22,105 nucleotides of DNA from a virus (IMGVR_UViG_2671180609_000024), one strand, 5' to 3'; numbered from the stretch's first letter, positions 1 through 13,175 are shown. The notes: generated from the letters alone by a model not told the origin. A program made the numbers and translations.

Positions 1-1254
1 ATGCTGGAACAAATGGGCATTGCCGCGAAGCAAGCCTCGTATAAATTAGCGCAACTCTCCAGCCGCGAAAAAAATCGCGTGCTGGAAAAAATCGCCGATG
101 AACTGGAAGCACAAAGCGAAATCATCCTCAACGCTAACGCCCAGGATGTTGCTGACGCGCGAGCCAATGGCCTTAGCGAAGCGATGCTTGACCGTCTGGC
201 ACTGACGCCCGCACGGCTGAAAGGCATTGCCGACGATGTACGTCAGGTGTGCAACCTCGCCGATCCAGTGGGGCAGGTAATCGATGGCGGCGTACTGGAC
301 AGCGGCCTGCGTCTTGAGCGTCGTCGCGTACCGCTGGGGGTTATTGGCGTGATTTATGAAGCGCGCCCGAACGTGACGGTTGATGTCGCTTCGCTGTGCC
401 TGAAAACCGGTAACGCGGTGATCCTGCGTGGTGGCAAAGAAACCTGTCGCACTAACGCGGCAACGGTGGTGGTGATTCAGGACGCCCTGAAATCCTGTGG
501 CTTACCGGCGGGTGCCGTGCAGGCGATTGATAATCCTGACCGTGCGCTGGTCAGTGAAATGCTGCGTATGGATAAATACATCGACATGCTGATCCCGCGC
601 GGCGGGGCTGGTTTGCATAAACTGTGCCGCGAGCAGTCGACGATCCCGGTGATCACAGGTGGTATAGGCGTATGCCATATTTATGTTGATGAAAGTGCAG
701 AGATTGCTGAAGCCCTGAAAGTAATCGTCAATGCGAAAACTCAGCGTCCGAGCACATGTAATACGGTAGAAACGTTGCTGGTGAATAAAAACATCGCCTA
801 TAGCTTCCTGCCCGCATTAAGCAAACAAATGGCGGAAAGCGGCGTGACGTTACACGCAGATGCATCTGCGCTGGCGCAGTTGCAGACAGGCCCTGCGAAG
901 GTGGTGGCGGTTAAAGCCGAAGAGTATGACGATGAGTTTCTGTCATTAGATTTGAACGTCAAAATCGTCAGCGATCTTGACGATGCCATCGCCCATATTC
1001 GTGAACACGGCACGCAACACTCCGATGCGATCCTGACCCGCGATATGCGCAACGCCCAGCGTTTTGTTAACGAAGTGGATTCGTCCGCTGTTTACGTTAA
1101 CGCCTCTACGCGTTTTACCGACGGCGGCCAGTTTGGACTGGGTGCGGAAGTGGCGGTAAGCACACAAAAACTCCACGCGCGTGGCCCAATGGGGCTGGAA
1201 GCACTGACCACTTACAAGTGGATCGGCATTGGTGATTACACCATTCGTGCGTAA
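1..1254 (+). CDS. proA: Gamma-glutamyl phosphate reductase (glutamate-5-semialdehyde dehydrogenase), complete 417 aa
   Basis: Full-length ORF; the translation matches enterobacterial ProA as I remember it along its whole length ([20 protein letters not shown] ... [12 protein letters not shown]). Conserved core-genome GC and codon usage. Confidence 0.95.
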
Positions 1255-1368
1255 ATAAAACCGGGTGATGCAAAAGTAGCCGTTTGATTCACAAGGCCAT
1301 TGACGCATCGCCCGGTTAGTTTTAACCTTGTCCACCGTGATTCACGTTCGTGAACATGTCCTTTCAGG

Positions 1369-1444
1369 GCCGATATAGCTCAGTTGGTAGAGCAGCGCAT
1401 TCGTAATGCGAAGGTCGTAGGTTCGACTCCTATTATCGGCACCA
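1369..1444 (+). tRNA. thrW: tRNA-Thr (anticodon CGU), 76 nt with encoded CCA
   Basis: GCCGATATAGCTCAGTTGGTAGAGCAGCGCATTCGTAATGCGAAGGTCGTAGGTTCGACTCCTATTATCGGCACCA; cloverleaf with anticodon loop TTCGTAA; sits immediately downstream of proA as thrW does in E. coli. Confidence 0.93.
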
Positions 1445-1458
1445 TTTAAATCAATAAG

Positions 1459-2433
1459 TTACACATCATTAGTACCTTCCTTATTTTTTGACTGGGACAA
1501 ATTTGGGACCGATGGGTTCAGGATCGAGTCTATTTGCCGTGCGTGTTCGGTAAGGTGATTAGGTGCAAGGTGAGCATATCGACGAACCATTTCGATAGAC
1601 TCCCAGCCTCCCATTTCCTGTAACACTGACAACGGGACTCCGGCTTGAACCAGCCAACTTGCCCAGGTGTGTCTCAAGTCGTGAAATCTGAAATCATCAA
1701 TACCAGCCCGTCTCAGCGCCGCTTTCCAGGCTGTGTTTGCGTCATACCGCATCTTCCTTACTGTTGGCGCTTTCGTTCCGTCTGGTTTGGTACAGCTTTC
1801 CTTGTACACAAATACCCAACGGTGATGATTACCGATTTGTTTTTTCAATACGCGACATGCAGTATCATTCAGCGCAACGCCAATTGCGCGGTTTGATTTA
1901 CTCTCTTCCGGGTTTATCCATGCCACCCGGCGCTGCATATCTATTTGTTGCCATTCAAGGTTGATGATGTTCGAGCGTCTTAAGCCTGTTGCCAGTGCAA
2001 ATTCAACAACAGACTTTAATGGCTCCGGACATTCATCAATCAGCCTTTGTGCTTCATGGGGCTCCAGCCAGCGGATCCGTTTATTCTTTGGTTGAGGCAC
2101 TTTAATAATTGGTGCCTTATCGAGCATTTTCCATTCACGCTCTGCGGCTCTTAGCAGGGCCTTTATAAATGAAAGATGCGTAGCCTTCGTTGCAACGGAC
2201 GCTGGTTTTGGCGTGTATTCTGGAACAGGTTTCCCTTTTTTTCTGCATGCTTCTGCCCTGAGTTTCCAGTTTTCCTCATGACGCCGGTTCGTCATTTTCT
2301 GCATTGCTGAATAAATTTTTGATTCAGTAATGTCTCTTAGTTGCATTCCTGCGAAATGTTGAAGCCAGAATCCGATCTGCTTTCCATTGAGCCTGTTTCT
2401 CTGCGCGACGTTCGCGGCGGCGTGTTTGTGCAT
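1459..2433 (-). CDS. Tyrosine-type phage integrase, lambdoid/DLP12-like catalytic domain; the first 19 codons of the ORF are an out-of-frame reading of a lambda-N-like gene start, so the native N-terminus is probably missing
   Basis: C-terminal catalytic signature [39 protein letters not shown] (R..HxxR..Y tyrosine recombinase motifs). Adjacent to and transcribed toward the tRNA. The ORF start [19 protein letters not shown] is the +1-frame reading of ATGGATGCACAAACACGCCGCCGCGAACGTCGCGCAGAGAAACAGGCTCAATGGAAAGCAG. Confidence 0.8.
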
Positions 2434-2437
2434 CCAT
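2377..2437 (-). pseudogene. Lambda N-like antiterminator gene fragment (first 20 codons, [20 protein letters not shown]), then breakpoint
   Basis: Minus-strand sequence ATGGATGCACAAACACGCCGCCGCGAACGTCGCGCAGAGAAACAGGCTCAATGGAAAGCAG matches the lambda N start as I recall it, then diverges. The listed ORF 2324..2569 is a read-through of this fragment. Confidence 0.8.
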
Positions 2438-2592
2438 CTGGATTCTCCTGTTAGTTAGCTTTGGTTGTGTGTGGGAGTCGTAGTCCTGAACGAAAACACC
2501 CCGCAATGGCACATTGGCTGCTAATCCGGATTCGCACTTCCGGCCAATGCTTCGTTTCGTATCACACACACCAAAGCCTTCTGCTTTGAATG

Positions 2593-2607
2593 CTGCCCTT
2601 CTTCAGG
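2593..2607 (-). promoter_or_regulatory. nutL boxB-like hairpin (GCCCTGAAGAAGGGC on the minus strand)
   Basis: Plus strand reads GCCCTTCTTCAGGGC, the reverse complement of the lambda nutL boxB; it lies between the PL-like promoter and the N fragment, as in lambda. Confidence 0.75.
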
Positions 2608-2664
2608 GCTTAATTTTTAAGAGCATCACCTTCATGGTGGTTAGTGCGTCCTGCTGATGTGCTT

Positions 2665-2693
2665 GGTATCACCGCTAGTGGTATTTGTGTCAA
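2665..2693 (-). promoter_or_regulatory. Lambda PL-like promoter (-35 TTGACA, 17-bp spacer, -10 GATACC) firing toward N' and int
   Basis: Minus strand reads GATGTTGACACAAATACCACTAGCGGTGATACCAAGCACATCAGCAGG, near-identical to the lambda PL core (TTGACATAAATACCACTGGCGGTGATACT). Confidence 0.75.
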
Positions 2694-2727
2694 CATCGCC
2701 AGAGATAATTTATCACCGCAGATGGTT
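2667..2727. promoter_or_regulatory. Three lambda-type CI operator sites (OL1-, OL2-, OL3-like 17-mers)
   Basis: TATCACCGCTAGTGGTA (2667-2683), CAACATCGCCAGAGATA (2691-2707), TATCACCGCAGATGGTT (2711-2727); each within one mismatch of lambda OL1/OL2/OL3 as I recall them, with lambda-like spacing. Confidence 0.8.
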
Positions 2728-2908
2728 ATCTGTATGTTTTTTATATAGATTTATTTTTTGCAGGGTTGTGTGGCTTGGGAGGTGATCGAGAGATCAGAAT
2801 TGCGTTGTTTAGTGAGTTGCACCTATTAATTTTAAAATAAATACAATTGGTATCGATGAATTACAGTTGGTGGGCTGTTGGTGAGTAATTTTATTCAGGG
2901 TGATTTAT

Positions 2909-3352
2909 ATGGACGAATATGTTTATAGCGCAAGGCATAATGCTTTTTTCCCTGTGGATATGATTGATAAATATAAATCAGAGGGATGGGATTTATCAGA
3001 CGCTAAGGAAGTAAATCAAAATATTATCAGTGAGTTTATGGCTGAACCGCCACAAGGAAAAATCCGTATTGCCGGAGATGATGGGCTGCCTGCGTGGGCA
3101 GATATTCCTCCACCCACGCATGAAGAGCTTATTGAAATTACTGAATCAGAAAGACAGCTACTAATTAACCAGGCCAACGAATACATGAACAGTAAGCAAT
3201 GGCCCGGTAAAGCGGCTATTGGTCGTCTGAAAGGTGACGAACTGACGCAATATAATTTGTGGCTGGATTATCTGGACGCACTGGAGCTGGTCGATACTTC
3301 CGGTGCGCCAGATATTGAATGGCCTACGCCTCCGGCAGTTCAGGCCAGATGA
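2909..3352 (+). CDS. tfa: Tail fibre assembly protein (Tfa family)
   Basis: C-terminal Tfa signature LELVDTSGAPDIEWPTPP (compare lambda Tfa VDTSTAPDIEWP). Likely start is the ATG at 2909; the listed ORF begins at an upstream GTG at 2900. Confidence 0.8.
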   Translation: MDEYVYSARHNAFFPVDMIDKYKSEGWDLSDAKEVNQNIISEFMAEPPQGKIRIAGDDGLPAWADIPPPTHEELIEITESERQLLINQANEYMNSKQWPGKAAIGRLKGDELTQYNLWLDYLDALELVDTSGAPDIEWPTPPAVQAR

Positions 3353-3917
3353 CATCCGGCGCGGTGCTGGTATCTGTTGCCGTCACCGCGTCAATGTAAT
3401 CCAGCACGGCGTTAAGTCGGGTTGTTTCTGCCTGAGTCAGTTTCCGTCCGGCCTGTAACTTCAGCTGAATCAGACTAATGGAAGCCATTGCTGCATCAAT
3501 CAGTGATTGGCGCTGTGCTTCTGCCGCGTCTACTGCGGCACTGTGTTGTGCCTCAGTGTCTGTCACCCATTTCTCACCATCCCATTTATCGTATGGCGTT
3601 AACGGTGAAATCGTGACATAACCGTCTTTGATGGCACCGATATAATCCACTGTAACAGCTGCGCCATTTTCGATTGAGTAAACAGTCTCATTGCGATGGT
3701 CTTCTTCATGGCTCCATCCCTTACCTGTAAATACTGCCACTCTTCCCGGAATGTTTTCGCCAGGGTCAATACCAGTGGAACAGGCGGGCATACTTACGCC
3801 AGTATTAATATATTCATCAGACCAGCCCGTATACTCAGATGTTTCAGCATCATAATAAAAACAACGCATATCGCCCGGCACTGTAGCCAGCCCATTTTCA
3901 TCAAAAACAGGTTTCAT
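3324..3917 (-). CDS. Tail fibre assembly protein, alternative copy in inverted orientation (Tfa')
   Basis: C-terminus ...DYIDAVTATDTSTAPDVIWPELPEA carries the same Tfa signature; convergent with the plus-strand tfa, as in Mu G / P1 C / e14 P invertible segments. Confidence 0.8.
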   Translation of the reverse strand: MKPVFDENGLATVPGDMRCFYYDAETSEYTGWSDEYINTGVSMPACSTGIDPGENIPGRVAVFTGKGWSHEEDHRNETVYSIENGAAVTVDYIGAIKDGYVTISPLTPYDKWDGEKWVTDTEAQHSAAVDAAEAQRQSLIDAAMASISLIQLKLQAGRKLTQAETTRLNAVLDYIDAVTATDTSTAPDVIWPELPEA

Positions 3918-4414
3918 TATTTAGCCCTCACCAGAAAGTTAAATGCAATATTTCGCGGTCTGACTGCAACAAAATTCACACCATCACCCACAGAGTTACT
4001 GGTGAAATTAAATCGTGAAAATCCTGGCTGATTTCCGGCGATGCCATCATGAAAGTTAATTGCGTGTCCCGCACCTTCGCCTATATTCCCGGCAAACTGA
4101 GAAAAGTTTGTAGCTGCCTGCCAGCTTAATAATTCGCGACCACCGTCTGCACCTCGCCCGTCATCCCAGATACGAATGAAATCACCGCGGGCTTCAGGTA
4201 ATACCAGCGAAGGAAACACTTTCGCCAGCACAGGATAATCAGTGGCAGAGAATTTCGCGCCGTTGAACTTCAAAAACACCATACAGGACCAGCTGTCGAT
4301 TACAGTATTTGGCATTGCAGCGGACGGCCAGAAGAACGGAACGCCAATAGCTGGAGCACCTTCTCTCAAACCAACGTTTATGAAAATGCAGAAATAACGA
4401 GCAAATGGCATCAT
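3917..4414 (-). pseudogene. Tail fibre C-terminal variable-segment fragment (Stf'-like); no constant N-terminal tail-fibre part in the window
   Basis: Gly/Asn/Phe-rich ORF immediately upstream of, and coupled to, tfa' (3917 overlap); its 5' end contains the recombinase crossover-like site. By position it is the alternative variable exon of an invertible tail-fibre gene. Confidence 0.6.
4361..4386. promoter_or_regulatory. Candidate Hin/Gin/Pin-type crossover site (hix/gix/pix-like 26-mer)
   Basis: TTCTCTCAAACCAACGTTTATGAAAA matches hixL (TTCTTGAAAACCAAGGTTTTTGATAA) at about 19 of 26 positions; about 55 bp upstream of the invertase start, where crossover sites lie in known systems. Confidence 0.5.
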
Positions 4415-4440
4415 TCCTGCTTTTGTCAGGGAGATCTACC

Positions 4441-4995
4441 ATGCTTATTGGCTATGTACGTGTGTCAACAAATGACCAGAACACAGATCTACAACGTAAT
4501 GCGCTGAACTGTGCAGGATGCGAGCTGATTTTTGAAGACAAGATAAGCGGTACAAAGTCCGAAAGGCCGGGACTGAAAAAACTGCTCAGGACATTATCGG
4601 CAGGTGACACTCTGGTTGTCTGGAAACTGGATCGGCTGGGGCGCAGTATGCGGCATCTGGTCATTCTGGTTGAGGAGTTGCGCGAACGTGGCGTTAATTT
4701 TCGCAGCCTGACGGATGCTATTGATACCAGTACCCCAATGGGGCGCTTTTTCTTTCATGTGATGGGGGCCCTGGCTGAAATGGAACGAGAACTGATTGTT
4801 GAACGAACAAAAGCTGGACTGGAAGCTGCTCGCGCACAGGGACGAATTGGTGGACGTCGTCCCAAACTTACACCAGAACAATGGGCGCAGGCCGGACGAT
4901 TAATTGCAGCAGGAATTCCTCGCCAGAAGGTAGCGATCATCTATGATGTTGGTGTATCGACACTGTATAAGAAGTTTCCGGCCGGAGATAAATGA
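4441..4995 (+). CDS. pin: Serine-type DNA invertase, Pin/Hin/Gin/Cin family
   Basis: MLIGYVRVSTNDQNTDLQRNAL... resolvase/invertase catalytic domain with the active-site Ser in YVRVST, plus a C-terminal HTH. SD GGGAG 7 nt upstream of the ATG at 4441; the listed ORF begins 12 codons upstream. Confidence 0.9.
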   Translation: MLIGYVRVSTNDQNTDLQRNALNCAGCELIFEDKISGTKSERPGLKKLLRTLSAGDTLVVWKLDRLGRSMRHLVILVEELRERGVNFRSLTDAIDTSTPMGRFFFHVMGALAEMERELIVERTKAGLEAARAQGRIGGRRPKLTPEQWAQAGRLIAAGIPRQKVAIIYDVGVSTLYKKFPAGDK

Positions 4996-5052
4996 AACCG
5001 TAGCACGTCGTATGCAAGATCGTGCTGCGGTTTATGCTTACCACTTGAAGAT

Positions 5053-5922
<870 letters not shown>

Positions 5923-6006
5923 CTAACCCTTTGAATTTACATAGCGCAAAAAGATACCTTTCCTCATAATGTGAGCTAATTTTATGTTTCGTTTGATGAT
6001 CGGGTC

Positions 6007-6067
6007 GGTCTCGAAAACCGGAGTAGGGGCAACTCTACCGGGGGTTCAAATCCCCCTCTCTCCGCCA
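6007..6067 (+). pseudogene. 3' fragment (about 61 nt) of a tRNA-Ser gene (serU-type) - an att-site remnant, not a functional tRNA
   Basis: GGTCTCGAAAACCGGAGTAGGGGCAACTCTACCGGGGGTTCAAATCCCCCTCTCTCCGCCA matches the anticodon-arm-to-3'-end of E. coli tRNA-Ser(CGA) as I recall it; upstream sequence does not form the acceptor or D arm. Confidence 0.8.
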
Positions 6068-6649
6068 CTTTATCAATGACTTATCTCCCGACTTCCCGTC
6101 TTGCTTTTCCTAAACAGAACAATCGTAGAATATTCTTGAAGGGTTAGATCGTCACTGTTTTCTGTTCGATACTGTGACATTCAGCACTTGATTCGCTATG
6201 GATCTGACAGGAAGGTTTTGAGCGAAAATCTGCAGTTATTCAGTCGTTTTCTTATCGGTCACCATTATTCTTTTAGACATTGATCCTACAAAGCTGCCGC
6301 AAAGTTGGTGGTGGGAACTGAAGTTGCGTAGAGAAGGGGTCAATACCCGGAGGCAAACATGGGCTGGCAAAAGTGTAGCGGTATTAGGCGCAGCTATTTA
6401 GCCTAGTTATGTTTTATGAAAACTTGATATCATATAAGTGTCTTACTTATTGGCTGTAAATAAGTTTTTCCTAAGGAATTGTTTCTTGAGTATCATTTGT
6501 AACTGTAACGGAATTTATAATCCTTTGCTTTATTGTTACGGTATTTTTTATCACACCCTATTTTTAGTGGTTTTTTATACTGAAGTTTGGCAAAGTGAAC
6601 TTTATATACATATACTTCATCCTGGTTTCAGTTAAATTGGGGGGATGAT

Positions 6650-7393
6650 ATGGCAACTACATGTTCAGTTATATTGATTTTGGAGTCCTTTGATGTTTAT
6701 TTCGGAAAAGAGAGTGTGTTTCTGGAGAGAGGTTCATCTGTACTTGTCGACTCTAGCTCTAGAGATTTTTTCCTGACATATCCTGAAAGAGTGATAGTGG
6801 CGGATTTTGGCGCTGAGTTTATTAGTCGCTATTTGAAAGCTAATAACTTAAGGGATATTTCTGATTGTAGGGAATATCCATCTTATTTAAAAATAAACTT
6901 TGCTGACTTCAGTTTAATTAAAGGATTAATTAGTTGGGCTAATCACTGTGCTGAATACATAGAAATTTTTGATGAGTCTATTGCTTTTACATGTCTCTCT
7001 GCATTTTCTTCTGAAAAACAATTTGGAGTATTTCTGTTTGGATGTTTGAAAAGCACAGGGGCTAAAGTTAAAACGATTATTCATACGGATTTATCTGCAC
7101 CATGGCGTCTTAAGGATATATCATCAAGATTATATCTCAGCGAAAGTTTACTAAAGAGGAAATTGAAAGAAGAGGGGGTATCATTCAGTAAGATCATACT
7201 TGATGAGAGGATGCAAATGGCTGAATATTTACTCAGCACTCGTTGTTATCCTATTAGTAAAGTAGCTAAGGTCTGTGGTTATGCCAGTGTCTCATACTTT
7301 ACTTATGTATTTAGACGTTATTTTGGTGTTTCTCCAAGTCAATACTCTCAGAGGAGTTCAGAAAGTAAAATTCTTACTCACCAGGGAATCTGA
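6650..7393 (+). CDS. AraC/XylS-family transcriptional regulator (AppY/GadX/Rns-like)
   Basis: C-terminal dual-HTH AraC domain (WRLKDISSRLYLSESLLKRKLKEEGVSFSKIILDERMQMAEYLL ... VCGYASVSYFTYVFRRYFGVSPSQY) aligns by eye to AppY. Very AT-rich gene with a long AT-rich leader; SD GGGGGATGA before the ATG. Confidence 0.85.
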   Translation: MATTCSVILILESFDVYFGKESVFLERGSSVLVDSSSRDFFLTYPERVIVADFGAEFISRYLKANNLRDISDCREYPSYLKINFADFSLIKGLISWANHCAEYIEIFDESIAFTCLSAFSSEKQFGVFLFGCLKSTGAKVKTIIHTDLSAPWRLKDISSRLYLSESLLKRKLKEEGVSFSKIILDERMQMAEYLLSTRCYPISKVAKVCGYASVSYFTYVFRRYFGVSPSQYSQRSSESKILTHQGI

Positions 7394-7395
7394 TC

Positions 7396-7872
7396 ATTGT
7401 TCTTGCCCCCTTATTTCCAGACAGGGGGGGTATCTTAAGTTAACGTTACCCGCTGACGTCGATATTCTCGCGGAGAGCGATAACCCAACGCACTGTGCGG
7501 ATGGTTTTCATTGTAATGTTCGATCGCCACTGCAAGATTATGCAATGCCGTTCTTACATTCGGTTTCGGCATGAACGCGATGTAGTCTTCCTTCATCGTT
7601 TTCACGAACCTTTCTGCAATTCCATTACTCTGAGGACTGCTGATTGCCGTTGTGCAGGGCTCCAGATTCAACTCTCTGGCGAACTGCCGTGTTTCATGCG
7701 CTCTATACGCTGAACCGTTATCTGTCAGCCACTGGATGGACTGTTCCGGTACTTTATCGCCAAAGCGTTTTTCTATCGCTCCTAACATGACATCCTGCAC
7801 TGTCGCTTTATCGTAACCTCCCGTGCTTGCGGCCCAGTCTATGGCTTCACGATCGCAACAGTCCAGGGCGAT
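7396..7872 (-). mobile_element. IS2-like (IS3-family) element remnant: 3' part of the orfB transposase plus a terminal inverted repeat; 5' truncated
   Basis: Translation ...[38 protein letters not shown]...[18 protein letters not shown] matches the IS2 InsD C-terminal region as I recall it. Terminal sequence around 7396-7420 (revcomp CCCCCCCTGTCTGGAAATAAGGGGGCAAG) resembles an IS2 end. In-frame stop at 7873-7875. Confidence 0.8.
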
Positions 7873-8147
7873 TCATCTGGGCCAATCCTTGCTCATAACA
7901 GGCATTCACTTCAGTCATGGCAGAAAGGTATGCATGCTGGAGAAGTCGTGAAAGAAAAGAAGACTGCTGCGCCGTTTGTCGTCACGTTTATCTTCATTGG
8001 CTATGCAAGTCGTAATACAAGGTGGGACAAAACTGAGACACATAAGGCCTCGCAATGGCTTGCAAGGCTTTACATGTTTTGATGTGGTGGGACGTGTGAG
8101 CGCAGTGTTGATGGGGTAATGCTTTGAATTAGAAGCGGATTCTTATA

Positions 8148-8193
8148 ATTCGTAATGCGAAGGTCGTAGGTTCGACTCCTATTATCGGCACCA
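8148..8193 (+). repeat. Direct repeat of the tRNA-Thr 3' end (46 bp, exact): att junction between element 1 and the P4-like element
   Basis: ATTCGTAATGCGAAGGTCGTAGGTTCGACTCCTATTATCGGCACCA is identical to positions 1399-1444 of the full tRNA gene. Confidence 0.9.
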
Positions 8194-8355
8194 TCTCAAC
8201 TTCCTCAAACGTCCGTATTAGTCCATAAAATCTCTGATTTATAACATTTTTTATTCTTTTAAGTCCATAGTAGTCCGTAACCATCCAGTAGAATCCGGTA
8301 CTGAATGTGTATAGGATTGTGTATATGTTCCTGTTCGGTCTGGATTCCTATACAC

Positions 8356-9537
8356 ATGCCTTTAAACGATATGCAGATTCGCCGCGCTAAGCCTGAAGCT
8401 AAAGCCTATACATTTGGAGATGGGCTAGGGTTGTCATTACTTATAGAACCTAATGGAAGCAAGAGTTGGCGGTTCCGCTATCGCTATGCCGGCAAACCCA
8501 AAATGATCTCGCTTGGTGTTTACCCAACGATCACCCTTGCCGATGCTCGTTCCCGTCGTGATGAAGCTCGAAAACTTGTGGCAGAAGGAAAGAACCCTAG
8601 TGAGGTTCGAAAAGAGCAAAAGCTAGCTATGCAAACAGAGTCAGAGAACGCCTTCGAAAAGATAGCCAGAGAGTGGCATCAACTTAAATCTGCTAAATGG
8701 TCGGCGGGATATGCATCAGACATCATGGAAGCGTTTAAGAACGACATTTTTCCTTATGTCGGAACAAGGCCTGTGGGAGAGATTAAACCGCTAGAGCTGC
8801 TGAACGTTCTGCGTAAAATTGAGAAACGTGGTGCGTTGGAGAAAATGCGCAAAGTGCGGCAGCGTTGCTCCGAAGTGTTTCGCTACGCAATTGCAACGGG
8901 TAGGGCGGAGTACAATCCTGCGGCTGATCTCTCCAGCGCTCTCGAAGTACACCAATCCAATCATTTCCCATTCCTAAAAGCTGATGAGATACCTGATTTT
9001 CTACGTGCCTTAGAGGGTTACTCCGGGAGTAAGCTTGTCCAGATAGCCACGAAATTACTGATGATTACGGGTGTGAGAACCATCGAATTACGCGCGGCAT
9101 TATGGCAAGAATTTGATCTGGATAACGCTATTTGGGAAATTCCTGCTGAAAGGATGAAAATGCGTAGGCCACATCTTGTGCCCTTATCATCTCAAGCGGT
9201 AGATTTACTCAATGAACTCAAGATCATGACAGGGAACTATCGTTATGTTTTTCCAGGGCGGAACGATCCGAATAGGCCAATGAGCGAAGCGAGTATAAAT
9301 CAAGCCATTAAGCGTATTGGGTATGGAGGAAAAGTCACTGGACATGGTTTTCGTCATACCCTTTCTACAATCCTGCATGAGCAAGGTTTTGAGAGTGCTT
9401 GGATTGAAATCCAGTTGGCTCATGTAGATAAAAATTCTATTAGGGGGACTTATAACCATGCTCAATATTTTAGTGGAAGGAAGTCTATGATGGACTGGTA
9501 CAGTAATTTGATATTTGAAAGACTAAAAAGGAGTTAA
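8356..9537 (+). CDS. int: P4-type tyrosine integrase (N-terminal arm-binding domain + catalytic domain)
   Basis: N-terminus MPLNDMQIRRAKPEAKAYTFGDGLGLSLLIEPNGSKSWRFRYRY is the classic P4/CP4-type integrase start; C-terminal HGFRHT ... Y catalytic motifs. Immediately follows the tRNA-derived repeat and reads away from it. Confidence 0.92.
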   Translation: MPLNDMQIRRAKPEAKAYTFGDGLGLSLLIEPNGSKSWRFRYRYAGKPKMISLGVYPTITLADARSRRDEARKLVAEGKNPSEVRKEQKLAMQTESENAFEKIAREWHQLKSAKWSAGYASDIMEAFKNDIFPYVGTRPVGEIKPLELLNVLRKIEKRGALEKMRKVRQRCSEVFRYAIATGRAEYNPAADLSSALEVHQSNHFPFLKADEIPDFLRALEGYSGSKLVQIATKLLMITGVRTIELRAALWQEFDLDNAIWEIPAERMKMRRPHLVPLSSQAVDLLNELKIMTGNYRYVFPGRNDPNRPMSEASINQAIKRIGYGGKVTGHGFRHTLSTILHEQGFESAWIEIQLAHVDKNSIRGTYNHAQYFSGRKSMMDWYSNLIFERLKRS

Positions 9538-9540
9538 TTT

Positions 9541-9957
9541 GTGTCTCAACCACTTTCGGAAATATTGACATGGGATGATGAACAATGGGAGGTATTTGTC
9601 CATGATTGGCTTATTGTCTGTAAATCAGATGATTACCCGTGGAGCGAACGTTTGGGAGGAGCTGGAGATAAAGGTAGAGACGTTGTTGGATATAAATCGG
9701 ATCCTAACGTAGAAGGTTATTCTTGGGATAATTATCAATGCAAACTGTACAAAAAAAGTTTAGGGTTCTCTGATGTTGTAGTTGAGTTTGGAAAACTTAT
9801 CTATTTTACTCTGAATGGTGATTATCCCATCCCTCAGAAGTACTTTTTTGTGGCACCCTATGATTTATCTACTACATTTTCTAATTTATTGAAAAATAAA
9901 AACGAGCTTAAAAAAGCAGTCCTTGATTCATGGGATTCAGCAATTTCAAAAAAATAA
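9541..9957 (+). CDS. Cargo gene 1: small protein with a PD-(D/E)xK (Mrr-like) nuclease motif; possibly the N-terminal part of a longer protein (see findings)
   Basis: GTG start 7 nt after SD AAGGAG and 3 nt after the int stop. Motifs GGAGDKGRDVVGY and, about 20 aa later, YQCKLYKK (D ... QxK) look like a restriction-endonuclease-like core. Very AT-rich. Confidence 0.6.
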   Translation: MSQPLSEILTWDDEQWEVFVHDWLIVCKSDDYPWSERLGGAGDKGRDVVGYKSDPNVEGYSWDNYQCKLYKKSLGFSDVVVEFGKLIYFTLNGDYPIPQKYFFVAPYDLSTTFSNLLKNKNELKKAVLDSWDSAISKK

Positions 9958-10547
9958 CTAAAAAGATTGATATTCCATTAGATGATGAAATAAAAAAATA
10001 TATTGAGGATTTTGATTTTAGTATTTTTTACTCTCTACCCTTATCATTGATTTTAAATGATATTGCAAATACACACCTTTATTTTAAGTACTTTAACGAG
10101 CTGTATGTCGTGAGAATCCCTCCAAATGAAATTCCAACATACAATTCAAAAAAAGAGTCTGTATATGTTAATGCACTGCTTCAAGCCTATTCAGAGCATG
10201 GAAATAAAACTTATAGTTCTTTCTTAGAGCTTGATGATCCATACAGACGACACTTTAATAATAGTAGAAATGATTTTTATTTTGCATCTTCGCTTGAGGT
10301 TTTTGTCCGCGAAGTATTTAAAGATGATGTATTCAAAGCATTGAAATGTTACATTTCATCTTCAATTGAACCCGTCTTTTATGAAGACCATAATTATGCA
10401 TTTATTAGGTGTAATGCAGTCTTGAAGCAGGCTGTTCTGACACCAATTGCACATTCAGTACTATCAAAAATATGTGAAGCAAATGATAAAAAAGGAATAT
10501 GCCATCATTTGGTTAATGATGGTGAAGTAATTTGGACGGTGAGATAA
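9930..10547 (+). CDS. Cargo gene 2: hypothetical protein (205 aa as listed); may be the C-terminal part of gene 1 joined by a shift in an A7 run
   Basis: ORF overlaps gene 1 by 28 nt in another frame; both frames pass through the A7 homopolymer at 9948-9954. No domain recognised by eye. Confidence 0.5.
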   Translation: MGFSNFKKITKKIDIPLDDEIKKYIEDFDFSIFYSLPLSLILNDIANTHLYFKYFNELYVVRIPPNEIPTYNSKKESVYVNALLQAYSEHGNKTYSSFLELDDPYRRHFNNSRNDFYFASSLEVFVREVFKDDVFKALKCYISSSIEPVFYEDHNYAFIRCNAVLKQAVLTPIAHSVLSKICEANDKKGICHHLVNDGEVIWTVR

Positions 10548-11005
10548 TGGTTAGAATTTATAATTCAAGTTTAGAAGTGGCATGTCGAATGGCGAAAGTG
10601 CTCGTCGCTATTTATCCTTCTTCATTAAGCCTTGAACGGCTTATTTGTTTTGATTTTATTTTAGTAAATCTTAAGGATTTTTTACCTGAAGAGATTAGTC
10701 TTCATCCTCCAATACCCCGTAGAGATGCTCAGTTAGCCCTAAAACGAGAGATTGTTTTAGAATCATTGGCTTTGTTGCAAGGCTATGAACTAGCCTCAAA
10801 AATTTATACACATCGTGGTTTTGTATATAAAGCTTCTGAAAAAACATATGCATTTACAAATTCTCTACATAATGAATATGTTGCGCAGATGGAGCATAAT
10901 ATAAATTTGGTGGTTAAGTTATATAGTGATATTCCTGATGAGCAGTTGCAATCAATTATAAAAAATAAAATTGGCAAATATGATATGGAATTTAATTATG
11001 AATGA
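10547..11005 (+). CDS. Cargo gene 3: hypothetical protein (about 152 aa)
   Basis: ATG overlaps the gene-2 stop (TAATG at 10545-10549); its stop overlaps the next gene's start. Same AT-rich composition. Confidence 0.55.
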   Translation: MVRIYNSSLEVACRMAKVLVAIYPSSLSLERLICFDFILVNLKDFLPEEISLHPPIPRRDAQLALKREIVLESLALLQGYELASKIYTHRGFVYKASEKTYAFTNSLHNEYVAQMEHNINLVVKLYSDIPDEQLQSIIKNKIGKYDMEFNYE

Positions 11006-11630
11006 CAATTTTTTTACGTTCAGAAAAATAAAGGTAACCGGATTCAATAAATTAGATGCTATAATTGAATTTGGTTCTAAATTGACTATTTTATATGGTG
11101 GTTCTGACTCTGGAAAAACATACATATATTATTTGATTCGATATTTATTAGGGAGTGAAAAACTAAAAAATAAAGATATCGATCATGCTCAAGGTTATGA
11201 TTTAGCCTATCTGGAATTTAATTTTCAAGGTAGGGTAATGACAATTGAGAGGTCTCTTCAGGATAGCGCCCATTACAGATTATATGATTCGAGCATTGAA
11301 AATGTTAGTGAAGCTAATCTGTTGATGGTTTTTTCCAAAAGTGCTTCGTCTAAAAAGAGTTTTTCATCATACTTTTATGGTAGGTTGAATTTCAAAGAGG
11401 CTAAAGTAAGAACAAACTTAAGTAATACTCTTCATAAATTTAATCTTAATAATGTTTTTGAATTTTTTTGTATTGATGAATTAAGAGTGTTAACTGAGAA
11501 GTCGTTAATTCTTTCTGATATTCCTAGCGAGGAGACAAAAAGAAAGTCTGAATTTAAATTCCTTTTAACTCAGAGAGATGATACTAACTCCTTAGCAGAA
11601 AAACCAAATAAAAAAGCAAGATATTTTTAA
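10998..11630 (+). CDS. Cargo gene 4: N-terminal head of an SMC/Rad50/RecN-like ABC ATPase (Walker A)
   Basis: FRKIKVTGFNKLDAIIEFGSKLTILYGGSDSGKTYIYYLIRYLLG is the canonical SMC-like N-terminal strand-loop-Walker A arrangement (GxxxxGKT). The ORF ends at a TAA inside a T5/A7 tract and the next ORF continues in the same frame. Confidence 0.65.
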   Translation: MNDNFFTFRKIKVTGFNKLDAIIEFGSKLTILYGGSDSGKTYIYYLIRYLLGSEKLKNKDIDHAQGYDLAYLEFNFQGRVMTIERSLQDSAHYRLYDSSIENVSEANLLMVFSKSASSKKSFSSYFYGRLNFKEAKVRTNLSNTLHKFNLNNVFEFFCIDELRVLTEKSLILSDIPSEETKRKSEFKFLLTQRDDTNSLAEKPNKKARYF

Positions 11631-11660
11631 AAAAATCAAATTGCAAATATTTATGAGGAA

Positions 11661-12251
11661 TTGAAAGCGCAATTAATTTATCCTGAATATGATCAAGTCA
11701 TTGTTTCAAGAGAACTTGAGAAAGTAGAGCAAGATATTGAATCATCGAAAGATATATTGAAAGGTATTGTTGATGCACTTGATGATAAGAAGCAATTATT
11801 AAAAGAGTTAAGTGATGAATTATATTCAATCAGTGACAGGGAAAAATACTTATCATTACTCATTGAAAGATTTAGTCTTCTTAAAGACCAATACTTTATA
11901 GATCTACAAAGAATAGATGTTGTATCACAGGCGAATTTCTATTTAAATAATTTTGCAGATATTTATTGTGAGTTCTGTAATACACCGCAAAAAAAAGAAA
12001 ATGAAATATCATATGATGATTGTTTTTTGTCGTGTAATGCAGAAAAATTGAAAATCAAAAGCCAGCTGAAAGGATTAATTGAATCAATCGGATCTAATGT
12101 TCGCGAACATGAATTAATTATGTTAAGAAAAAATGATGTTAATGAAATTTATCAATCAGAAAAAAGTGATTTTAAGACGTTAGAAGATAAAAATATAAAA
12201 CAATACATTCATCTCTTGAATCACTTTATGAATATAAAGACAATCTTTTAA
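11661..12251 (+). CDS. Cargo gene 5: coiled-coil segment of the SMC/Rad50-like ATPase with a Cys4 cluster (CxxC-x14-CxxxC); probably not independently translated
   Basis: Heptad-rich sequence (EKVEQDIESSKDILKGIVDALDDKKQLLKELSDELYSI...), cysteines in YCEFCNTPQ...DDCFLSCN. Same frame as gene 4, separated by a single TAA; the listed start is a TTG with no convincing SD. Confidence 0.5.
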   Translation: MKAQLIYPEYDQVIVSRELEKVEQDIESSKDILKGIVDALDDKKQLLKELSDELYSISDREKYLSLLIERFSLLKDQYFIDLQRIDVVSQANFYLNNFADIYCEFCNTPQKKENEISYDDCFLSCNAEKLKIKSQLKGLIESIGSNVREHELIMLRKNDVNEIYQSEKSDFKTLEDKNIKQYIHLLNHFMNIKTIF

Positions 12252-12817
12252 TGGATCACACAAAACATAGCATTCTATCTTCATTACAAGATAAAGAAGA
12301 TGATGTTGACGAACTTAAATACTCCGCCGAGGACTTTGACTCCTTAACAGTAGCTGATTTGTATGATATAGAAATAGCGATGCAAGACTTTTTGAATGAT
12401 ATAAATTTTGAAAATTCTAAAGATAACAAAGTGCGATTTGACGAAGATACATATGACTTTAATATCAATGGGAAACGCCGAGGAATGTTTGGTAAAGGTA
12501 CCCGTGCAGTAATGCATGCTATATTTACCATTTGCTTTGCGGAATTTTTATCAAGAAAAGGGAATCCATTCATTGGATTTGTTGTGCTTGATAGTCCATT
12601 AGTGACGCACTTTGATAAAGATAGAGGGGGTTCTCTATCGGATGTTAATAGCGTCAGTCTCAGTGATTCATTTTATCACGCATTAATCAAAAGGGACTAT
12701 AATTTCCAGATTGTAATTCTTGAGAATAAAGGTCCGACGTTCCAAATAAAAATTAATGATGCAAATAAAATCCATAACTTAAATAAGAATGGAAGCTCTG
12801 GTTTTTATCCTGTTTAA
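12251..12817 (+). CDS. Cargo gene 6: C-terminal head of the SMC/Rad50-like ABC ATPase (signature-like region, Walker B/D-loop, H-loop)
   Basis: FGKGTRAVMHAIFTICFAEFL followed by PFIGFVVLDSPLVTHFD (hydrophobic strand + D, Walker B-like) and a downstream His (FYHAL). ATG overlaps the gene-5 stop (TAATG). Confidence 0.6.
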   Translation: MDHTKHSILSSLQDKEDDVDELKYSAEDFDSLTVADLYDIEIAMQDFLNDINFENSKDNKVRFDEDTYDFNINGKRRGMFGKGTRAVMHAIFTICFAEFLSRKGNPFIGFVVLDSPLVTHFDKDRGGSLSDVNSVSLSDSFYHALIKRDYNFQIVILENKGPTFQIKINDANKIHNLNKNGSSGFYPV

Positions 12818-13175
12818 TACATTAAAAATATAACTGCTAATTGGGGTGCTCGAAATTATATTTCGTTTCGAGCGCTCAGTTCATTTCTAAATAATTTGCA
12901 AAATTATTTTGGGTACTTTCGCCTCTACACTTCCTTCGGGTGGTTCCACAATAATGGATCTCACCGGCGTTTGATATTTTATAATCTAACCCCTTAGCGC
13001 GCGCAGCCCCCCACGCCTGCTCGCTTCGCTTAACAGACTGGTTTTCATGCATTCCGCAAATCGTCTCAGAAGCCACCACACAAGGGCTTTCGCGTCAAAA
13101 ATGGTGCATGAGAATCATGCGTTTTCATGCGCTATAGACATGCACTCATGCGCTCTCAGGCCAGCCAGGGAAAAG

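Follow-up and report, generated by a model that had tools for sequence, protein, structure and literature searches.

The window, a stretch of 22,105 nucleotides, was found to be the thrW locus of Escherichia coli O157:H7 carrying the prophage remnants Sp1 and Sp2, and its 100% megablast matches among the 5,426 complete E. coli genomes searched were O157:H7. It begins with proA (1–1254, located by ORF scan) and tRNA-Thr(CGT) (1369–1444, located by tRNA scan), and a truncated lambdoid integrase gene (1459–2379, minus strand) lies 3′ of the tRNA gene. In the annotation of strain Sakai, “prophage Sp1, lambda-like” (300042–310627) is followed by “prophage Sp2, P4-like.” The Sp1 remnant is bounded in the window by a 47-bp direct repeat (1399–1445 and 8148–8194), an att sequence corresponding to the 3′ end of tRNA-Thr, and these repeats mark the tandem integration at thrW of Sp1, a lambdoid remnant, and Sp2, a P4-like satellite. 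The region spanning 2434–2900 is N′/nutL-pL remnant DNA of Sp1. The remnant ORF itself (2324–2437, minus strand) has a lambda-N-like N-terminus with the arginine-rich motif of N proteins, and DNA similar to it carries the annotation “antitermination protein N” elsewhere. An old deletion has joined this N-terminus to the region upstream of the truncated integrase, and xis is absent. Further into the Sp1 remnant, an AraC-family regulator gene (6650–7393, plus strand) was noticed in an AT-rich stretch, and a fragment of an IS3-family integrase core (7435–7800, minus strand) lies 3′ of it.

The original prediction had described two opposed tfa genes and one orphan variable tail-fibre exon with no constant N-terminal exon, in the arrangement of the e14 P region and the Mu G segment, and this anatomy was confirmed. 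The first gene, tfa (2909–3352, plus strand), encodes the 147-aa chaperone partner of a deleted exon and matches Pfam Caudo_TAP (E = 2.7e-30) and phrog_188 (2.4e-62). Its start is ATG 2909 according to RefSeq WP_000344820.1, which has identical DNA, and GTG 2900 merely opens the ORF. The convergent tail-fibre assembly chaperone gene, tfa′ (3324–3917, minus strand; 197 aa; Caudo_TAP E = 2.3e-27 and phrog_105 8.1e-85), overlaps tfa by 29 bp at its 3′ end, and its product is identical to K-12 TfaE at 131 of 194 residues. The orphan exon, equivalent to stfE (3917–4372, minus strand), matched phrog_3100 (E = 2.4e-50) over profile positions 214–381 of 382 only, that is, the C-terminal part. Since it matches only the C-terminal third of the fibre families, it is a variable exon without the N-terminal part. 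Its frame runs across the crossover site to ATG 4411, outside the segment, giving a product of 164 aa that starts MPFARYFCIFINVGLREG; this version is on record, and a lookup of a 165-aa version of the ORF starting MMPF returned no record. The exon is identical to K-12 stfE at 84 of 153 positions, and the leader MPFA.YF.IFINVGL is common to both. A promoter scan gave no more hits than were obtained in shuffled sequences and nothing convincing for pin or this pin-proximal ORF. At the place where relatives have a constant exon of 112 codons, N′/pL remnant DNA abuts position 2849 of the window.

The Pin crossover site, a pix/hix-like 26-mer with the sequence TTCTCTCAAACCAACGTTTATGAAAA, was located at 4361–4386, where a hix-like sequence had been predicted. 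The half-sites TTCTCTCAAACC and TTTTCATAAACG flank a central AA at 4373–4374, and the 26-mer can also be written TTCTCTCAAACC AA CGTTTATGAAAA. One base separates it from the pinE-proximal site of K-12 e14, and its position coincides with a natural inversion breakpoint between the O157:H7 strains Z1826 and Z1768, which maps to 4360–4384 of the window. The likeness of this sequence to Pin-type sites is homology and not chance. At 4366, which is position 6 of the inner half-site, C is replaced by T, and GLGEG of the orphan exon thereby becomes GLREG; this substitution is the sole difference of the window from 86-24 and strain 350 over 2849–9000. This T was present in none of the 5,426 complete genomes and was found in draft assemblies (42 index blocks). 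Across the Mu, P1, e14 and Sp1 sequences (gix, cix and pix), half-site position 6 was found to be C, G, T or A, and the inner half-site of P1 cix, TTCTCTTAAACC, likewise has T there. Because position 6 varies among functional half-sites, the T at 4366 is probably neutral for Pin binding.

The pin gene (4441–4995, plus strand) begins 54 bp beyond the crossover site and encodes a full-length Din-family serine DNA invertase of 184 aa. The long ORF opens at 4405, and the true start is ATG 4441 (MLIGYVRVSTNDQ), with the ribosome-binding site GGGAG (4429–4433) 7 nt ahead of it. The expectation of an intact Pin was upheld by a full set of domains, namely the serine resolvase domain (Resolvase, PF00239, 8.3e-52, residues 3–135) and a C-terminal HTH (HTH_7, PF02796, 1.1e-15, residues 138–181), and by a length to be compared with about 185–195 aa in the family. 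Over its whole length the protein can be aligned with the Mu Gin structures 3uj3 and 4m6f (E = 1e-92); it has the Ser9 motif YVRVSTNDQ and the DRLGRS motif, and MLIGYVRVSTNDQ aligns with Gin 4m6f. Its identity is 178/184 (97%) with K-12 PinE, 143/181 with Gin and 151/181 with Cin, and the pin DNA is identical to that of the strains in which the segment switches. A putative recombinational (Fis) enhancer stretch was assigned to 4459–4530 (plus strand) from the annotation of P1 cin (nt 18–90 of the gene); it is identical to K-12 pinE at 70 of 72 positions and to the P1 enhancer at 55 of 72, a likeness that coding constraint alone could account for. Pin is probably still made, and it could plausibly bind the orphan site and act in trans on sites elsewhere. 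Gin, Cin, Hin and Pin cross-complement each other. In K-12, PinQ, PinR and PinE each invert the e14 segment (PMC12529663). The pin gene lies beside a segment that is seen in both orientations in other strains, where other invertases could contribute, and inversion in undeleted strains is thus not strict proof of the activity of this Pin allele, since part of it could be catalysed by those enzymes. Next to pin lies PD-T4-3, a single-gene anti-phage system (5053–5826, minus strand), with a full-length match to PADLOC PDLC04031 (E = 2e-140) and to the Pfam LEM-3-like GIY-YIG family.

The matching inverted site to the left of tfa, which the original prediction had reported missing, was searched for by comparing every 26-mer along the 22,105 bases with the half-sites of Sp1 and e14, with shuffled sequences as control; hix and gix half-sites served as extra queries. 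The site at 4361 scored 0 mismatches, and the next best candidate in the window had 8 of 24, a level at which shuffled sequences, reaching 5 to 8, also stand. Furthermore, an inverted-repeat search of the window yielded no partner for 4361–4386. The left site of relatives falls inside the DNA that is deleted here. This result covers the visible 22 kb of the genome, and sites may exist elsewhere in it. When a 100-bp probe centred on the site was used, two matches each were obtained in four complete genomes of the deletion lineage (NZ_CP018241.1, NZ_CP018243.1, NZ_CP015831.1 and NZ_CP038421.1), and the second match may be a partner site or a second pin locus.

The complete module, with the second site, the 112-codon constant exon and a second variable exon, was found in most O157:H7 genomes, Sakai among them. 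In these intact relatives the left site, CTCTTCAAAACCTTGGTTTGGGAGAA (L004 3655–3680), lies 346 bp to the left of the point matching window position 2849. Their constant exon (MAKNDF...LQNLGLGE) matches the N-terminus of tail-fibre families and joins either a gp53-like exon, giving 236 aa, or the stfE-like exon, giving 264 aa. Between Z1826 and Z1768 the flanks are identical and a 1.85-kb segment lies in opposite orientations; the breakpoints, read from where the flank alignments overlap with that of the segment, fell at 4360–4384 on the right and at CTCTTCAAAACCTTGGTTTGGGAGAA on the left. The pin-side junction of orientation A, with the stfE-like exon beside pin as in the window, was found in 107 records at an identity of at least 99%, and that of orientation B, with the gp53-like exon beside pin, in 384 records including Sakai, EDL933, EC4115 and TW14359. 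Orientation B encodes a 136-aa gp53-like protein, consisting of MPFARYFCIFINVGLGE followed by the gp53-like part. The 86-24 derivatives NADC 6564 and NADC 6565 also differ in the orientation of the segment. The occurrence of both orientations among strains and within the derivatives of 86-24 indicates, therefore, that the intact Sp1 module is a live switch. In NADC 6564 (NZ_CP017251.1, L012 1163–3091) the segment is shorter than in the sister isolate and contains many frameshifts, which are probably a consensus artefact of a culture of mixed orientation. No paper describing the inversion of Sp1 specifically was found in the literature searched.

When the window was compared with Sakai, 3.84 kb was absent between the parts matching 1–2851 and 2849–4384, the latter being inverted in Sakai. 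ECs_0273, cI, cro, cII, O′ and P′ lie in the missing DNA, as do the left site and the constant and gp53-like exons. The deletion junction shows a GGT microhomology at 2849–2851, with the N′/nutL-pL remnant on its left and the last codons of the lost exon on its right. By comparison with the 236-aa protein of Z1826, the residue of the gp53-like variable exon (2850–2888, plus strand) amounts to its last 12 codons and the stop codon (VSMNYSWWAVGE and stop). The nine closest complete genomes carry the same deletion with IS629/IS1203 at the junction. In strain 350, TA, IS629 (1310 bp) and CACGGT lie between the same flanks, such that the window equals strain 350 minus 1318 bp, and this looks like a near-precise loss of IS629 across the GGT microhomology. 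Excision of the IS-excision-enhancer type is known from the biology of IS629 in O157, and the element could reasonably have been lost here in that manner.

The IS-free junction was found in none of the 5,426 complete E. coli genomes. The draft assembly GCA_026889435.1 has it and is 100% identical to the window over 917–7411 (6.5 kb), and about 18 more contigs are similar. An assembly or editing artefact, considered in view of there being no complete genome with the IS-free junction or with T at 4366, was ruled out by the identical draft assembly, and the configuration is therefore real. In the common O157 form, IS629 is found at the same left point in the orientation opposite to that of the deletion lineage, and Sakai is without IS629. 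A simple IS-adjacent deletion from this common form was rejected as the whole story; because the IS629 of strain 350 and that of Z1826 lie in opposing orientations, the history must be more complex. Colinearity with the window extends across the site in all nine deletion genomes and in the draft contig L013, in one orientation. A single orientation in the nine genomes is what a lock predicts, and the nine are probably one clade and do not amount to nine independent tests.

The e14 P region of K-12 (stfP-tfaP-tfaE-stfE-pinE) has the same gene order and orientations as the window. Its leader ORF likewise crosses the site, both tfa genes match those of the window at ~90% DNA identity in their 3′ halves, and mcrA follows pinE where PD-T4-3 follows pin, both being nuclease-type defence genes. 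The two loci differ in that e14 has kept both sites and the constant exon and inverts, whereas in the window a single site is left and the constant exon is missing; the variable exons have also diverged (84 of 153 for the stfE type), and e14 resides at icd and Sp1 at thrW. In Sakai, where the intact Sp1 switch is annotated as ECs_0280–ECs_0284 and lies in orientation B, the sequence differs from the window at 4 positions over 2849–9000; the intact forms (Sakai, Z1826, Z1768 and 86-24) have 3.84 kb more, and this includes the left site and both the constant and the gp53-like exon. The G segment of Mu (Gin) and the C segment of P1 (Cin) follow the same logic of a constant exon, two inverted variable exons with their own chaperones and an adjacent invertase, and they have in common with Sp1 the 26-bp sites with an AAACC core. 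Unlike the window, which holds a non-invertible stump without other tail genes, these are complete switches of functional phages with long fibre genes. The system, a decayed version of one described in textbooks, is known in kind and lies in an annotated prophage; what is added to the known picture is the exact deletion, the evidence of an active parent switch and an orphan-site SNP that marks the lineage.

The region is very likely a locked and decayed Din-family tail-fibre switch of Sp1 at thrW, with a single site and an intact Pin, in agreement with the original view that it is probably locked and non-functional for tail fibres. In the intact form, Pin-catalysed inversion between two inverted 26-bp sites would link a short constant exon to either of two variable C-terminal exons, and behind each of these lies a dedicated chaperone gene. 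The 3.84-kb deletion relative to Sakai took cI-cro-cII-O-P′, the left site and the constant exon, and of one variable exon it spared almost nothing; IS629, which marks the junction in the closest relatives, would since have been lost here through the 3-bp microhomology. The segment is in this manner frozen with the stfE-like exon beside pin, and the surviving site is still intact, as are Pin, the ribosome-binding site of its gene and the putative enhancer stretch. Instead of two inverted sites the window contains one, instead of two variable exons it contains one and 12 codons of the other, and the constant exon is absent; the invertase gene is present directly outside the one crossover site. 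Because one site is left, Pin is without a partner in cis and the segment cannot invert, and no fibre can be made because there is neither a constant exon nor any other tail gene. Nothing in the data was found to contradict this explanation.

The module might still invert, or recombine in cis, by way of a cryptic or distant partner site, in which case another or a larger segment would be flipped. The tolerance of Din invertases for degenerate sites, as seen from all four bases occurring at position 6 of gix, cix and pix, and the second chromosomal match of the site probe in four complete genomes of the deletion lineage would fit such activity, but the best other candidate in the 22 kb stands at shuffle level, no inverted-repeat partner occurs in the window, and colinearity across the site in 9/9 deletion genomes and contig L013 speaks against any flipping. 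We considered continued inversion in cis exceedingly unlikely. The remnant might also have been co-opted as a host phage-defence module of the kind reported for K-12 e14, acting through the 164-aa pin-proximal ORF or a trans-acting Pin alongside PD-T4-3. In e14, inversion by PinQ or PinE makes StfE2, in which the pin-proximal leader is joined to the gp53-like exon, and StfE2 blocks the adsorption of T2, while StfE was found ineffective (PMC12529663). Together with this published result, the leader MPFA.YF.IFINVGLGE kept between e14 and Sp1, the 136-aa product of Sp1 orientation B as the counterpart of StfE2, and the full-length PD-T4-3 gene adjoining pin are in favour of a defence role. However, a product of the StfE2 type cannot be made here because the gp53-like exon is lost, and the state retained corresponds to StfE, the ineffective one; in addition, no promoter above chance was detected upstream of the 164-aa ORF, and the O157 exons and their K-12 counterparts are only distant relatives. 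A defence role of the remnant was judged to be very unlikely on this balance.

A related idea, which we regard as improbable, is that the orphan site and Pin have been retained because Pin acts in trans on the invertible segments of other prophages or on a second pix-like junction, of which related genomes give a hint, and that the loss of the StfE2-type exon then alters the phage susceptibility of the sublineage. If this were true, the deletion would have changed a recombinase-controlled anti-adsorption system in a way that matters for the phenotype, and would not be neutral decay.

The locked and decayed switch matters little beyond annotation. At this locus, in one O157:H7 sublineage, a deletion associated with IS629 has locked a phase-variable module of a prophage and left the recombinase in place, and the locus provides a natural “locked” control for studies of Pin inversion. 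It also bears on the anti-phage role recently proposed for inverted fibre fragments of the e14 type, and both the IS-free junction and the T at 4366 can serve as lineage markers. Separately, in GCA_012910455.1, which carries the T SNP, an IS629-like element 95–97% identical to IS1203 was observed to interrupt the 5′ end of tfa (L014 4477–4657, ~window 2936), and another contig (L015) breaks off there as well. In Sp2, the stretch of ~8500–13000 past its integrase encodes RefSeq “ABC-three component system” proteins and an AAA ATPase that is a pseudogene in Sakai, and this stretch is likely a hotspot of defence cargo.
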